DNA of 64,000 nt from Gammaproteobacteria bacterium (GTDB lineage Bacteria > Pseudomonadota > Gammaproteobacteria > JABCZS01): the NCBI GenBank assembly GCA_021773275.1, contig JAJFKJ010000013.1, positions 2,092-66,091 on the forward strand. Direction: 5' to 3'. A program made the translations under genes and the position numbers. Positions within the stretch are counted from its first letter, which is position 1. Each line of letters starts with the position of its first letter. This document shows, piece by piece, positions 20,938 to 56,165 of the stretch. A model generated the notes under the pieces. It saw only the letters and a program-made list of their open reading frames with translations. It did no database searches and was not told where the DNA came from.

Positions 20938-21537
20938 ATGAGTCTTGCAGAATCACGTATTGATAACAGTAAAACCAAAAATGAAGAAAACTTCATACTT
21001 GCTTCTATCTATGCTTCGATCACTGCTTTCCCCTATTGGCTCATCGCTCGCCCTGCTTGGATCAAGAAAAACCCGAAAGAAACCGCTGGCGGTATGGTTG
21101 CAGCAGCTGGTGTATTATACGCCGTTAGCCACTTAGCAGGCTGGTTTTATGATATGAAAGATATCGACACCGACCGAGGCTGGAGCCCACCTGATGATTG
21201 GGAACCCCCTGTTTGGCCTGGCCCTGGCAAACCACCCGATTGGTGGCCATGGGAAGGCGCACCTACTGAAAATACAGGTGACAACGATTTTGGCACTTAC
21301 AACGAAAGTCACAGCTACGATATTTTTAGTGGTATGGATGAGACAGAGATATTCGTAACGCTTGTTCTCTTTGCAGTGGCCTTGGCTGCACTATTCAAAG
21401 CTTTCCAGTGGTGGAACAATAAAGAAAATGATGCCACAAGCACTGCGGCGCCGAAGCTGTTTAGCAACAGTAATGCAGATGATGATTTAAGTGTTGATAC
21501 TCCGGGTCTTGTTACAGATAGAACACCTAGGTTGTAG
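20938..21537 (+). CDS. Hypothetical membrane protein with a Pro/Trp-rich segment (PPDDWEPPVWPGPGKPPDWWPWEG)
   Basis: ATG at 20938 is preceded by GGAG (20925-20928); the ORF track starts earlier at a TTG. Hydrophobic helices lie on both sides of the P/W-rich low-complexity insert. The stop codon TAG is the GTAG head of a REP. Confidence 0.5.
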   Translation: MSLAESRIDNSKTKNEENFILASIYASITAFPYWLIARPAWIKKNPKETAGGMVAAAGVLYAVSHLAGWFYDMKDIDTDRGWSPPDDWEPPVWPGPGKPPDWWPWEGAPTENTGDNDFGTYNESHSYDIFSGMDETEIFVTLVLFAVALAALFKAFQWWNNKENDATSTAAPKLFSNSNADDDLSVDTPGLVTDRTPRL

Positions 21538-21690
21538 GGGTCGCATTGCATGCGACCCGGGTGGCATACAATGCCACCCCTACAATACCGCTCTCTGACG
21601 TTCGCGGCTCTCGTATTAAATCATTGCGAGATTAATAGCATATACGGTCTACATGCCATACAACCGCTTGCTCACGCGCGCGGCTCTGAC
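21534..21690. repeat. Composite repeat R1: REPIN doublet (21534-21583) plus a ~100-bp tail (tcattgcgagat ... caaccgctt ... gcgcggctctga)
   Basis: gtaggggtcgcattgcatgcgacccgggtggcatacaatgccacccctac, followed by sequence ~80% identical to 23100-23174. Confidence 0.7.
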
Positions 21691-21769
21691 ATAAGACAAG
21701 CGCAAGCAAATCTAGCAGATCATTTGCAAGCATCCCCCCTCCTAAATCTATGATAAAATCATCGCTCTA

Positions 21770-21852
21770 GCCGAAGTGGTGGAATTGGTAGACACGCCAT
21801 CTTGAGGGGGTGGTGGGCTTTGCCTGTGCGGGTTCGAATCCCGCCTTCGGCA
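21770..21852 (+). tRNA. leuU: tRNA-Leu(GAG)
   Basis: GCCGAAGTGGTGGAATTGGTAGACAC... is near-identical to the E. coli tRNA-Leu(GAG) 5' half. Anticodon loop CTTGAGGG, long variable arm, acceptor ends ...CTTCGGCA. CCA is not encoded. Confidence 0.85.
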
Positions 21853-23033: not shown

Positions 23034-23071
23034 GATTCAAAAAACCCTTGGCAATTACATTGCTGCGCAAT

Positions 23072-23174
23072 GTCGGGTCGCACAGGGTGCGACCCCTACG
23101 TTAAGATCATTGCGAGATAACAGCAGATACGTCTTGCATACCATGCAACCGCTTACTAGCGTGCGCGGCTCTGA
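23072..23174. repeat. Composite repeat R2: single inverted REP (ends cccctac at 23098) plus the same ~80-bp tail as R1
   Basis: gtcgggtcgcacagggtgcgacccctac, then taagatcattgcgagataacagcagatacgtcttgcataccatgcaaccgcttactagcgtgcgcggctctga. Homologous to 21584-21690. Confidence 0.7.
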
Positions 23175-23177
23175 TAG

Positions 23178-23528
23178 CTACTGTGGAATAGCAGGCTCAT
23201 CTACTTCGATGATGACTTCAGGTGCAGTTTGTTGCTGCTGCATCTGTACAGGTGCAACAGGAATTTCCGAAATACGTGCTGCTTTGCTACGCTGCACAGC
23301 AATACCGCTTAAGGTTAAGCTGGTGATAAAAAACGCTGTAGCAAGAATCGCTGTAACGCGGGTAAAAAAGTTACCGGAACCTTGGCTACCAAATAGTGTT
23401 TGAGAACCACCGGCACCGCCGCCGCTGCCGCCTAAAGCACCCATGCCGCCTTTACCTTGTTGCATTAACACCATCACGATCAGTGAACCGGCAATAACAA
23501 CGTGAATCATCAAAATTATTTCATACAT
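23178..23528 (-). CDS. secG: Preprotein translocase subunit SecG
   Basis: 116 aa with a Gly-rich loop between two TM helices. Downstream of tpiA, as in Pseudomonas and Legionella. Confidence 0.9.
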   Translation of the reverse strand: MYEIILMIHVVIAGSLIVMVLMQQGKGGMGALGGSGGGAGGSQTLFGSQGSGNFFTRVTAILATAFFITSLTLSGIAVQRSKAARISEIPVAPVQMQQQQTAPEVIIEVDEPAIPQ

Positions 23529-29889: not shown

Positions 29890-30504
29890 TCAGTATTTTT
29901 CTAGAGCTATCAAGTATACCTCTCTTGAGCGCGCTCTTGAAGCTTTAGGCTTATAAATCTTCACTTTTGTATACTTTTTTCGTATATCTAACACAAAAGC
30001 ATCAAAACCGACCCCGTGAAACAGCTTAATACACAGGCTACCACCTGGCCTTAATACCCTGTCAGCCGTATCCTGTGCTATCTGGGCTAAATTAAGGGCT
30101 CTCAAGACATCTGTGTCCTTGTGACCCATCATGTTCGGCGCCATGTCAGATAATACAACATCAATGCCACCTCCCGTAGTACTCAAGATATCGGCCAGAA
30201 GCGCATCATCTTGAATATCACCTTGCCAAATGGTGGCGTTATTAATGGGGTCCATCTCTAGTAAATCAATGGCATAGACATGGCCCGAGTTACCTATCTC
30301 TTGCACCAATACCTGCGTCCAGCCGCCGGGTGCCGCACCGAGCTCAAGCACGCGCATACCAGATTCGATAAGCTTATGTTTTTCTTGGATTTCTTTCAGT
30401 TTAAAAGCCGCTCGCGAACGATAGCCCTGCTCTTTAGCCTGCTTTACATAAGGGTCTTTAAAGTGACGGTCAAGCCACTGACCAGATGATTTCGATTTAG
30501 CCAT
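29890..30504 (-). CDS. rlmE: 23S rRNA (uridine2552-2'-O)-methyltransferase RlmE (FtsJ)
   Basis: 204 aa. RSRAAFKL, and the AdoMet-binding [11 protein letters not shown]. Confidence 0.9.
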
Positions 30505-30542: not shown

Positions 30543-31325
30543 GCGCCAGCGAACGAGCAGCTGAATCAGCGATATAGCTTCTGCAGCTGCAAGCTTTTAA
30601 CTCATCTGATCGCGCACTAGCGTTTGCGCTCGCTTAATAACTTGTCGCAAGCACATGGGCGAGCGTGAGCGCCAGCGAACGAGCAGCTGGGCCTTCTGTT
30701 GTGAGATAAAGCTAAAAATAGTACCATGCAAAGAAAAGAGAATAATATGAATAGCAATAACCCATATGCATACTTTATAACGTTCACTTGTTATGGTGCA
30801 AGATTACACGGTGATGCTAGAGGCACAGTTGATAGACATCACAATATCATTGAAACACCCTGTATAACACAGAATATTAAACGCAGCTCTTTGGCAAAAG
30901 CAAGAATGAAAGGTAAAAATTATTTGCTTGATGCACCAAGAAGAGACATCGTGCTAAAAGAAGTTAAAAGAACCTGTACATATAATAACTGGCTTCTAAT
31001 TGCAGCTCACATTAGATCAAATCATGTTCACATTGTTTTACGCGCAATGGAACCTCCTGAGTTTATACTAAAGCAATTAAAATCCTACATATCACGTTCA
31101 TTAAATAAACATTTTCCTGAAGATAAAACAAGAAAAAAGTGGACAAAACACGGAAGCACTCGATATATATGGGCTCCCTTACTTGTCGAAGCAGCCATTG
31201 AATATGTTCTACAGAGGCAAGGCAAACCCATGAGTATTTATTCGAATTCAGATTACATGAAAAATATGATTGATGACCTTGATTCATTGCTCATCTGATC
31301 GTTCGCTAGCGCTCACGCTCTCTTA
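30543..31325 (+). mobile_element. RAYT (REP-associated tyrosine transposase, IS200/IS605-like HUH) gene with structured flanking repeats, including perfect 22-bp inverted repeats (30655-30676 / 31302-31323)
   Basis: Left flank: gcgccagcgaacgagcagctg occurs twice (30545, 30663), and ctcatctgatcg (30591) recurs at 31292. Inverted repeats gagcgtgagcgccagcgaacga / tcgttcgctagcgctcacgctc bracket the ORF. The element sits in the rlmE-yhbY divergent intergenic region. Confidence 0.65.
30726..31298 (+). CDS. RAYT/IS200-like HUH single-tyrosine transposase
   Basis: 190 aa. YAYFITFTCYG matches the RAYT N-terminal motif (YYIKGGTWFFT in E. coli YafM). HUH motif is SNHVHIVL. The tyrosine motif TRYIW...IEYVLQRQGKP corresponds to the RAYT DYIYINPVKHG motif. 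Confidence 0.65.
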   Translation: MQRKENNMNSNNPYAYFITFTCYGARLHGDARGTVDRHHNIIETPCITQNIKRSSLAKARMKGKNYLLDAPRRDIVLKEVKRTCTYNNWLLIAAHIRSNHVHIVLRAMEPPEFILKQLKSYISRSLNKHFPEDKTRKKWTKHGSTRYIWAPLLVEAAIEYVLQRQGKPMSIYSNSDYMKNMIDDLDSLLI

Positions 31326-31343
31326 CGTGATATACTCCCCCTT

Positions 31344-31634
31344 ATGACTGACTTATCGAAACAAGACATTAAAGACCTGAAGCAAAAGGCCCATCATTTG
31401 AAGCCTGTGATTCTTATGGGTGATAAAGGCCTTTCTGAGGCGGTGCAAAAAGAGATTGGCGTGGCACTTGGCGCCCATGAGCTGATCAAGATTCGTGTTA
31501 GTGCTGAAGATCACACCGAGCGTGACACCACTATCAAAACCATCTGCGAACATCACAACGCTGTGCTGATCCAACAGATTGGCCATATGGCGACGATTTA
31601 TAAAGCTAAAGCTGCTAAAGCTAAAGAAGTCTAG
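31344..31634 (+). CDS. yhbY: RNA-binding CRM-domain protein YhbY
   Basis: 96 aa. KPVILMGDKGLSEAVQKEIGVAL...HELIKIRV is characteristic of YhbY. It is the divergent neighbour of rlmE in enterics. Confidence 0.85.
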   Translation: MTDLSKQDIKDLKQKAHHLKPVILMGDKGLSEAVQKEIGVALGAHELIKIRVSAEDHTERDTTIKTICEHHNAVLIQQIGHMATIYKAKAAKAKEV

Positions 31635-54509: not shown

Positions 54510-56165
54510 ATGCTCACACACATCCAAATTAAAAACTTCGCAATCATCGATGAGCTAAATATCGAGTTGCACCCCGGCATGACTGTAATGACCGGCGAAA
54601 CCGGTGCCGGTAAGTCTATTATGATCGATGCACTATCACTTTGCATGGGCGATAGAGCTGATGCAACTTTTGTGCGCGCTGGCGCGCAGCGGGCCGACAT
54701 TTGCGTTTCGATTGACATATCCCGCTTGAGCTTTATTCAGCAATGGTTGGCAGAGCACGAACTAGAAAGCGAGGCTGAATGCGTTGTGCGCCGTACTATC
54801 AGCAAAGATGGCCGCTCACGTGCTTACATTAATGGTCATTCTGTGCCGCTGACAAAACTTAAAACTCTCGCGCAAGATTTTATTGACATTCATAGTCAAC
54901 ACGCGCATCACGCTTTACTAAAACCTGAAACGCACGGCAAGTTATTAGATATTTTTGGCAAACAGCAGCCTCAGCTTGCGATCGTCAAGCAACATTACGA
55001 TCGTATGCGTGAAATCACTGCAGAAATAACAAGTCTAAAATCTAAAGAAGCGGACAAAGCACATGAGATGGAGCTATTGCAGTTCCAAATCGAAGAACTT
55101 GATAAGCTCGATTTAAAACCCGATGAATGGAGCGATCTTACCCAAAAACACGACGCCCTTTCGCACAGTGAACAAATCATCAGCCACGCACAAAGTATTT
55201 TAGACACACTATTCGAGGACGAGTCGCACTCCCTGGTGCAAACCCTGGCACAACTCAAACACAAATTAGACACTATCGCCAAACTCGATGGGAGCTTACG
55301 CGATATTAGCAAACTAATCAGCGACGCACACATCAATTGCGATGAGGCTGCCAGCAGTTTACGGGCGTATATATCTGGCATCGAAAATGACCCGCAAACA
55401 CTGAAAGACATGCATGATCGCATCAGTTTGTTGCATGATCTCTCGCGCAAACACCGCTGCGAACCTGAAGCATTATGCGAAAAACTAGCAAGCTTGCAGG
55501 AAAGATTTGCTGGCCTACAATCGCAAGAAGAAGCAATTATTGCCTTAGAAGCTGAATTGAAGTCAGAGCAACAGGCCTATCAAGCTGTCACTACAAAACT
55601 CAGCAAAGCACGGCAAAATCACGCGACTAATTTAAATAAACAAATCACTGAGATGATGCAAGAACTTGGCATGCCCAGCGGCGAGTTTTTTGTGCAGCTT
55701 AAGCCCCTAACTGAACCCAGCAGCAATGGCCTGGAACAAATAGTGTTCATGGTTAAAACAAACGCCGGGCAACAAGCGCATCCATTGCAAAAAGTCGCCT
55801 CTGGCGGCGAGCTTTCACGTATCTCACTTGCATTACAAGTAACGATTGTACAAGATGATATGCTGCCGGTGATCGTGTTTGATGAAGTCGATGTAGGTAT
55901 TGGTGGTGGCACCGCTGAAATAGTCGGTCATTTATTGCATTGCCTTGGTGAAAAAGCACAAGTATTGTGTGTAACGCATCTACCACAAGTCGCTGCCCAA
56001 GGTGATCAACATTTTTTCATTAGTAAGCAAACTACTGACAACCAAACCCGCACGCAAATGTCTGTGCTCAGCAAAGAACAGCGCATCGAAGAAATCGCCC
56101 GTATGCTAGGCGGCGTCAAGATCACCGAAAAGACCCTGGAGCATGCTCAAGAGATGTTGGGTTAA
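54510..56165 (+). CDS. recN: DNA repair protein RecN
   Basis: 551 aa. Walker A GETGAGKS, coiled coil, C-terminal signature/Walker B (LSGGELSRISLAL...IVFDEVDVGIGG). Confidence 0.9.
   Translation: MLTHIQIKNFAIIDELNIELHPGMTVMTGETGAGKSIMIDALSLCMGDRADATFVRAGAQRADICVSIDISRLSFIQQWLAEHELESEAECVVRRTISKDGRSRAYINGHSVPLTKLKTLAQDFIDIHSQHAHHALLKPETHGKLLDIFGKQQPQLAIVKQHYDRMREITAEITSLKSKEADKAHEMELLQFQIEELDKLDLKPDEWSDLTQKHDALSHSEQIISHAQSILDTLFEDESHSLVQTLAQLKHKLDTIAKLDGSLRDISKLISDAHINCDEAASSLRAYISGIENDPQTLKDMHDRISLLHDLSRKHRCEPEALCEKLASLQERFAGLQSQEEAIIALEAELKSEQQAYQAVTTKLSKARQNHATNLNKQITEMMQELGMPSGEFFVQLKPLTEPSSNGLEQIVFMVKTNAGQQAHPLQKVASGGELSRISLALQVTIVQDDMLPVIVFDEVDVGIGGGTAEIVGHLLHCLGEKAQVLCVTHLPQVAAQGDQHFFISKQTTDNQTRTQMSVLSKEQRIEEIARMLGGVKITEKTLEHAQEMLG

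Follow-up and report, generated by a model that had tools for sequence, protein, structure and literature searches.

A probable class 3 HUH-Y1 transposase gene and its inverted flanking hairpins in the rlmE-yhbY spacer of a gammaproteobacterium

The gene and its insertion site

The DNA analyzed here is a 64,000-nucleotide stretch of contig JAJFKJ010000013.1 from a gammaproteobacterium (assembly GCA_021773275.1), which is called the window and whose positions are counted from its first letter. Between the divergent genes rlmE and yhbY it carries a gene for a transposase of the HUH-Y1 family. A sequence-only reading had described this gene as a REP (repetitive extragenic palindrome)-associated tyrosine transposase (RAYT), and had regarded it either as a domesticated mobilizer acting in trans on the GTAGGGG REPs of the window or as a separate unit bounded by inverted repeats of its own. 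As detailed below, the second proposal turned out to be essentially right, and the arrangement is the one described for class 3 of the HUH-Y1 family. The features of the locus, including a unit shared with the locus of the nearest homologue (L139), are as follows.

29890-30504, minus strand: rlmE (Pfam FtsJ, 181 bits)
30543..30563, plus strand: copy A, a partial duplicate of hairpin C that lacks the 5' part and retains the loop, the 3' arm and the tail; it does not belong to the unit shared with L139
30601..31327, plus strand: the whole unit, ~727 nt, consisting of hairpin B (minus strand), hairpin C (plus strand), the gene and hairpin D (minus strand)
30601..30636, minus strand: hairpin B, which repeats the right end directly with 81% identity; reverse complement AAGCGAG-CGCAAAC-GCTA-GTGCGCG-ATCAGATGAG
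30661..30689, plus strand: hairpin C, left and gene-proximal, with foot GAG (30661-63), arm CGTGAGC (30664-70), loop GCCA (30671-74), arm GCGAACG (30675-81) and tail AGCAGCTG (30682-89)
30747..31298, plus strand: the HUH-Y1 (TnpAY1) gene assigned to class 3, 183 aa; the alternative start at 30726 gives 190 aa
31290..31326, minus strand: hairpin D, on the right, reverse complement GTAAGAGAG-CGTGAGC-GCTA-GCGAACG-ATCAGATGAG
31344-31634, plus strand: yhbY (CRS1_YhbY, 78 bits)

The gap between rlmE and yhbY is 839 nt long and holds a single open reading frame (ORF; 30726..31298), for which the start at 30747 is likelier than that at 30726 because the public protein P0001 is the identical 183-aa sequence. 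The HVH codons occupy positions 31023-31031 and the codon of the catalytic candidate Tyr160 (190-aa numbering) positions 31203-31205, and the stop codon TGA (31296-31298) is embedded in the hairpin D tail. In 53 other gammaproteobacterial rlmE-yhbY loci, distant ones that stand in for the empty-site comparison with a sister genome, the gap had a median of 128 nt and ranged from 29 to 271 nt, with one outlier of 1624 nt (L029) that contains an unrelated ABC-ATPase-like ORF. The enlarged spacer is in agreement with the earlier suggestion that the gene was inserted into this divergent region. The G+C content of the ORF (35%) also differs from that of the window (45%).

The nucleotide homology between the window and the L139 unit extends from about 30601-30610 to about 31327; the sequences outside are unrelated, and the two units lie in unrelated gene neighborhoods. 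Because the homology is confined to ~30601-31327, the unit measures ~727 nt and its removal leaves ~112 nt of native spacer, a value near the 128-nt median of the uninterrupted spacers. An independent assembly from the same organism (L001, the Logan assembly of SRR15505519) was identical over 3668 nt. It begins at window position 30631, i.e. the assembly breaks inside hairpin B, as expected if this repeat recurs elsewhere in the genome, which we take as weak evidence only. A search of Rfam found no family in the region, with just two tRNAs in the window, and thus the flanks do not correspond to a known RNA element.

The protein matched the Pfam profile PF01797 (Y1_Tnp) with 32 bits over residues 64-142 (cut-off, 23), and a profile search against sequences of the Protein Data Bank (PDB) gave a weak match to IS200-family structures in which the HUH motif was aligned. 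An AlphaFold model (predicted local distance difference test score of 87) placed HVH on a strand formed by residues 100-106 and Tyr160 on a helix formed by residues 151-163. The best Foldseek matches in the PDB, all of them with a probability of 1.0, were the TnpA proteins of IS200, IS608 and ISDra2 and the TnpA-REP protein of E. coli (4ER8), with target-normalized TM (template modeling)-scores of 0.5-0.66 (2F4F, 2XMA, 2VIH and 4ER8). The motifs YFITFTCYG, HVH and IEYVLQRQ were all present as the sequence-only reading had quoted them, HVH being part of SNHVHIV (NHVH) and IEYVLQRQ providing a Y----Q motif, and the protein also contains KKWTKHGS (W-T).

A database search retrieved 88 homologues, the nearest being 58% identical and most of them being metagenome proteins of ~164 aa. 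P0001 itself forms a cluster with no other member and comes from a single contig. The protein has the conserved N terminus YFITFxCYGxRLHGD, and YFITFTCYGARLHGD...VDR is conserved with all homologues. In an alignment of 23 sequences, 12 columns were invariant (Y16, T19, G24, L27, H28, G29, W89, H100, K119, W139, S144 and Y160), and all of them are kept in the window protein; His102 and Gln165 are conserved in at least 90% of the 23 members. With the family profile, which is 168 positions long, 781 clusters at 50% identity were recovered at E ≤ 1e-30 from 1.84 billion representatives. Screening of 72,556 plasmids and 50,697 phage records with tblastn yielded no relatives, and therefore no vector was identified.

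Hairpins flanking the unit and its homologues

The inverted flanks at 30661-30682 (GAGCGTGAGCGCCAGCGAACGA) and 31299-31320 are identical at 21 of 22 positions, so that the repeat previously taken as perfect contains one G/A mismatch; it is nonetheless real, since the chance expectation of a 22-nt inverted match was 0.00 in 100 shuffles, and the complementarity of the flanks reaches 41 nt at 80%. The duplicated flank modules also exist, although their coordinates needed correction: GCGCCAGCGAACGAGCAGCTG is found at 30543 and 30669 (not 30545 and 30663), and CTCATCTGATCG, which is part of a 36-nt direct repeat with 81% identity, at 30601 and 31290 (not 30591 and 31292). Each flank is an imperfect hairpin in which a GAG foot is followed by 3 bp, the tandem G.A/A.G mismatch, another 2 bp and the tetraloop, and these GAG-footed hairpins are distinct from the GTAGGGG REPs, as had been noticed. 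The stems of hairpins C and D are identical, their sole difference being one loop base, and the minimum-energy DNA fold of hairpin D has the expected (((..((....))..))) shape. The feet read GCGA(G) in C and B and GAGA(G) in D, the stem-proximal GA(G) being common to them. Hairpins B and C stand foot to foot and form a doublet resembling one upstream of the L139 gene, whereas the right-hand doublet is incomplete, with no plus-strand partner after D, unlike in L139, where such doublets are present on both sides of the gene. No outer inverted repeats were seen in the window beyond the hairpins.

The flanks of homologous genes were surveyed in 80 metagenomic loci (42-50% identity; G+C content of 34-70%). 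The commonest 7-9-mers upstream of the homologues spell GAGCCGCGACCGTAAGGGAGCGG, and those downstream its reverse complement, with a plus copy 30-100 nt upstream and a minus copy 20-60 nt downstream in ~50 of the 80 loci. This family 23-mer is an imperfect hairpin with a GAG foot, a CCGC/GCGG stem, a tandem G.A/A.G mismatch, a CC/GG stem and a GNRA-like loop, and it is nearly invariant across phyla. Among 138 distinct copies, 94% of the cells were paired and five of the six pairs had changed on both sides; none of 500 shuffles reached the observed values, and in slid registers the paired fraction fell to 30-49%. A covariance model built from these 138 hairpins gave no match in 440 kb of control loci. 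In the window it matched C (30664-30681, plus strand; 10.5 bits, fifth in the window) and D (31296-31326, minus strand; 11.3 bits, fourth) in the expected orientations.

The hairpin of the window unit is a variant with 7-nt arms, one base shorter than the consensus, and with compensatory substitutions. L139 carries the short-arm variant GAG-CGCGAAC-GCTA-GTGAGCG-ATCAGCTG, and the fact that the same variant has been kept there through compensatory changes argues for selection on pairing. The genome thus contains two versions of the hairpin, the variant (pattern GAGCGYRARCGCYAGYGMRCGA), which within the 64-kb window occurs only at the gene, and the consensus type (pattern GAGCCGCGNNCGNNAGNNAGCGG), which occurs only away from it, in three orphan copies.

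21585..21616, minus strand: consensus-type class 3 hairpin, reverse complement GAGCCGCGAACGTCAGAGAGCGG (31.5 bits, E of 1e-5), abutting a GTAGGGG REP pair
21661..21692, minus strand: consensus-type class 3 hairpin, reverse complement CAGAGCCGCGCGCGTGAGCAAGCGG (34.8 bits, E of 1.5e-6)
23146..23177, minus strand: consensus-type class 3 hairpin (34.1 bits, E of 2.3e-6), ending a ~57-nt module

The three orphans, with CAGA and GAGA feet, are all intergenic and adjoin GTAGGGG REPs and a tRNA gene; a half copy of the class 3 hairpin lies near 36838. Two composite clusters (21530-21700 and 23040-23180) consist of a GTAGGGG REP followed by a ~57-nt module that ends in the consensus-type hairpin, the module copies at 21633-21689 and 23118-23174 being 79% identical, and the first cluster lies just upstream of the tRNA gene at 21770-21852. 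Tandem arrangements were observed in a metagenomic contig of 44% G+C (L088:2122-4256), in which the class 3 hairpin forms arrays around the gene, a 64-nt unit being repeated 7.4 times on the upstream side, next to tandem tRNA genes, and a 240-nt unit 2.8 times on the downstream side.

Placement among the HUH-Y1 classes

The HUH-Y1 family has been divided into three classes by Quentin, Siguier, Chandler & Fichant (2018; BMC Genomics 19:475; PMC6006769). Class 1, the IS200 type, has a Y---Q motif, and class 2, the TnpA-REP/RAYT proteins, has a Y---NP motif and GT[AG]G REPs by which its genes are typically flanked, whereas class 3, a small new class, is described in Table 1 of that work by NHVH, W[TA] and YV[VI][AENY]EQ motifs and a median length of 178 aa; it also has a core of ~155 aa and an extended N-terminal conservation. 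The class 3 hosts are Planctomycetes, Acidobacteria and Proteobacteria (Legionella), and on either side of the genes there are weak hairpins of an atypical kind (CCGAG-CCGCGACC-GTAA-GGGAGCGG; foot CnGA), with gene-less copies elsewhere in the genome and ~600 copies in Solibacter (PMC6006769). Table S1 of the same paper lists for Legionella pneumophila the hairpin CCGAGCCGCGACCGTAAGGGAGCGGA, with the fold .....((((..((....))..)))). and close variants in Solibacter and Planctomyces, and an ACGA foot for P. limnophilus. The authors, whose description of class 3 was based on 14-24 proteins, likened it to both insertion sequences (IS) and REPtrons, considered its arrangement intermediate between the two, and proposed it as an evolutionary link from IS200-type IS to domesticated REP/RAYT systems (PMC6006769). 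When Bertels et al. (2017) sorted RAYTs into groups, class 3 was not among them.

The window protein has the NHVH and W-T motifs, the Y----Q spacing, the conserved N-terminal region and, with 183 aa, the length of class 3 proteins; the gene is flanked on both sides by hairpins in an inverted architecture of the weak foot-((((..((....))..)))) kind, and three consensus-type orphans are present in the window. Moreover, the hairpin derived independently from the 80 homologue loci is exactly the Legionella hairpin of Table S1. In its protein traits and its hairpins the gene agrees with class 3, whereas the foot and the inner residues of the Y motif deviate; it is, therefore, a divergent member of class 3, and probably a TnpAY1 gene of the family described in 2018 rather than a new kind of element.

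An alternative is that the gene belongs to an ordinary IS of the IS200/IS605 family (class 1.1 TnpA), mobilizing nothing but itself. Both the best NCBIfam match and the solved structures closest to the protein are indeed of the IS200 type, and the window protein shares with the TnpA of IS608 and ISDra2 a Y...Q-type tyrosine helix with a glutamine; the imperfect hairpins with a 5' guide-like foot resemble the presumed recognition elements of these IS, and the atypical G+C content of a gene lying in a conserved spacer would also fit. Nevertheless, the score against transpos_IS200 (NF033573) was 29.3 bits, below its cut-off of 55, and the Y-to-Q distance is one residue longer than in the Y---Q motif. 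In addition, IS200/IS605 elements have end hairpins on the same strand, many identical copies and often tnpB, whereas the hairpins of the unit are inverted, no tnpB and no second copy were seen in the window, and gene-less hairpins are dispersed and form arrays as REPs do. An ordinary IS of this family is, therefore, a very unlikely explanation. A more IS-like organization is found in one subfamily of homologues (L081, L090, L093, L096, L100, L103, L108 and L122), whose hairpins are in turn bracketed by additional inverted repeats (GGGTGCGCGACGTAGAAGTG... at one end, ...CTCCACTTCTACGTCGCGCACCC at the other), lying ~100 nt farther upstream and 25-40 nt farther downstream. The loci are unrelated beyond these outer repeats, which suggests that the repeats mark an IS-like unit with defined ends that enclose the hairpins.

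The GTAGGGG REPs bear on the proposal that the gene is a canonical class 2 RAYT, domesticated and acting in trans on REPs and REPINs (REP doublets forming hairpins). The window contains nine GTAGGGG sites, compared with an expectation of 2.3, and most of them form GTAGGGGTCGCA....TGCGACCC hairpins in inverted pairs; positions of this family are listed below.

513-609, 4585-4676, 21534-21583, 23058-23099 and 48861-48902: GTAGGGG REP family, GTAGGGGTCGCA(N6)TGCGACCC, intergenic, often as REPIN-like pairs

No cognate class 2 RAYT gene for these REPs is present in the 64 kb. In favor of the proposal, the window holds a true GTAG-footed REP family, and the six-frame translation of the 64 kb revealed no second HUH...Y ORF; the homologues of the gene, moreover, are labeled "REP element-mobilizing transposase RayT" at the Joint Genome Institute, although this is a generic name derived from COG. 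In contrast, the protein scored 23.7 bits against REP_Tyr_transpos (NF047646), whose cut-off is 80, it has Y----Q instead of Y---NP, no Y...NP downstream of an HUH was detected in any of the six frames of the window, and its homologues in several phyla bear the GAG-footed hairpin and not GTAG REPs. The nearest GTAGGGG site (23093) is more than 7 kb away, whereas class 2 genes typically adjoin REPs of their own. These observations leave the class 2 RAYT reading largely refuted by profile score, tyrosine motif and flank type, and we regard it as extremely improbable. The GTAGGGG REPs are a separate, canonical GTAG-footed family of the kind cognate to class 2 enzymes and are not the substrates of this gene, and the trans-acting mobilizer is not supported; of the label RAYT-type HUH transposase, the HUH/Y1 part stands on the PF01797 match and the fold, and the RAYT part, taken strictly, lacks support.

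The class 3 unit shares several properties with REPtrons, the class 2 systems that combine TnpA-REP/RAYT with REPs, BIMEs (bacterial interspersed mosaic elements) or REPINs, namely the HUH-Y1 fold, the inverted hairpin repeats that bracket the gene, the foot-to-foot doublets, the dispersed gene-less repeats and a gene usually present in low copy number. It differs from them not only in the tyrosine motif and the foot but also in that class 2 palindromes are usually stronger and REPs are species-specific, whereas the class 3 hairpin is near-identical across several phyla.

Proposed mechanism, mobility and in-frame relatives

Taken together, the gene, the hairpins and the enlarged spacer likely reflect the landing of a compact ~727-nt unit, made up of the gene and its flanking hairpins, in the short divergent rlmE-yhbY spacer; this degree of confidence applies jointly to the class 3 identity, the unit, the insertion and the mechanism. 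By analogy with the TnpA proteins of IS608 and ISDra2 and with the E. coli TnpA-REP protein, from which we infer enzymatic activity, cleavage site, dimerization and present-day mobility, the protein would be a single-domain HUH/tyrosine endonuclease-ligase of single-stranded DNA. Probably as a dimer, it would bind the imperfect hairpin formed by each repeat in single-stranded DNA; His100 and His102, with Gln165, would hold a metal ion, and Tyr160 would cut beside the hairpin and become covalently linked to the 5' phosphate. Rejoining of the strand elsewhere would then transfer doublets of hairpins and perhaps also the unit with its gene. Because the flanks are inverted, the strand that can form the G.A version of the hairpin differs between the left and the right end, an arrangement found in REPtrons but not in IS200. 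The conservation of the hairpin-gene-hairpin order across phyla, along with the unrelated neighborhoods of the window and L139 units, argues that the whole unit travels horizontally, and the existence of gene-less dispersed and tandem copies that the hairpins also spread alone.

The unit differs from the published class 3 in that the protein is at most 58% identical to any other sequence found, the gene has a low G+C content, and the arms have 7 nt and not 8, with different, compensatory stem bases. Several observations weigh against this explanation. The YVLQRQ motif departs from YV[VI][AENY]EQ at three positions, and the feet are GCGAG and GAGAG instead of CnGA. The covariance scores of the flanks are not significant by themselves (E of about 1), and the window hairpins folded as DNA no better than shuffled sequences (z-scores of -0.6 to +0.8), so that the support for the structure comes from covariation, since energy alone gives none. 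Degenerate patterns detected in the 64 kb no variant hairpin other than B, C, D and the truncated A, and therefore nothing here shows its spread. A scan of RlmE in the GTDB species genomes yielded no sister genome, and an empty site could not be demonstrated because the closest RlmE was only 54% identical. Finally, the literature searched contained no class 3 biochemistry and no class 3 work later than PMC6006769.

Some of these observations would also be explained if this class 3 copy were a stranded relic or had been co-opted, with an intact ORF in an immobile unit whose hairpins would, at best, contribute to rlmE and yhbY expression. The match of the flanking hairpins to the consensus is poor (~11 bits versus 31-35 for the orphans), and the right-hand doublet is incomplete, copy A is truncated, and no other variant hairpin exists in the window. 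The rlmE start is just 38 nt away from repeat A and the yhbY start 17 nt away from repeat D, and because of these short distances both promoters must lie within or across repeat-bearing DNA. As a consequence for the host, the rlmE-ftsH and yhbY promoters are now in or beside foreign DNA, and yhbY may be read through from the HUH gene. However, a consensus promoter scan was uninformative (2 sites versus 2.5 expected), the counts of both promoters and terminators being at the chance level, and decay is at odds with the retention of all invariant residues, with the identical stems of C and D and with the maintenance of the variant in L139 through compensatory changes. We therefore give a relic or co-opted copy a real, although minor, chance of being the right explanation, and retain the class 3 unit inserted as a whole as the preferred one.

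The hairpin unit was also observed inside other genes. Among the best 150 clusters of the family, about one in ten is a long protein that contains a complete class 3 domain. Five clusters are alanyl-tRNA synthetase (AlaRS) chimeras (P0134, P0139, P0129, P0115 and P0187), split always at positions 262|263 of Pfam tRNA-synt_2c; two are valyl-tRNA synthetase chimeras (P0208 and P0165), and others involve an HrpA-like helicase (P0160) and AddB (P0216). In these chimeras translation of the left hairpin yields the peptide SRDRKGA or AATVRER and that of the right hairpin PLPHGRGS, and the HUH and Y....Q motifs are retained; the topology is intein-like, and no splicing domain was seen in them. One of the AlaRS chimera clusters comprises 31 members, with contigs as long as 778 kb, and the representative of a related AlaRS cluster, P0129, is MCH7721036.1 at NCBI, from a planctomycete metagenome-assembled genome.

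A further case is provided by two orthologous DUF1156/methyltransferase ORFs, 46-57% identical (L059:2083-5889 and L067:1357-5754), both with a whole HUH unit in frame. The L067 unit sits where L059 has a hairpin-only insert, and, because the unit positions differ between the orthologues, the insertions look independent and frame-preserving. One possibility is that such inserts survive because loss of the methylase would be lethal. L067 also carries an in-frame GIY-YIG nuclease domain (aa 259-325).

In-frame inserts of 20-80 aa that consist only of the hairpin are known for REPs and for Rickettsia palindromic elements (RPEs) (Di Nocera et al. 2013; PMC3733652). The relatives described here resemble them in being read through in frame in aminoacyl-tRNA synthetase, helicase and repair genes, with the hairpins translated, but they differ in that a whole HUH gene with both hairpins is inserted, amounting to ~200-250 aa; the window copy differs further in being free-standing and intergenic. 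The literature searched contained no report of a whole unit in frame, only the REP-only inserts of PMC3733652.

No branch of the HUH-Y1 transposase family has been studied less than class 3, to which the window adds a divergent and intact gammaproteobacterial member, and the survey indicates that the family is much larger than thought and that essential genes repeatedly tolerate whole units in frame. Since compensatory substitutions have altered its hairpins together with the protein, this member is a natural specificity variant with which the reading of the hairpin can be tested. A more far-reaching proposal, which we consider rather improbable, is that class 3 HUH units are a self-contained type of horizontal element, with a near-constant hairpin in at least four phyla and intein-like in-frame sites in essential genes, and that the window copy represents a lineage of distinct specificity, its protein and its hairpin (with 7-nt arms) having covaried, the consensus hairpins answering to a second, unseen class 3 enzyme.

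Apart from the repeats considered above, the longest repeat of the window is a 161-nt direct repeat (55996-56156 and 61129-61289), whose two copies are 94% identical and lie 5.1 kb apart.

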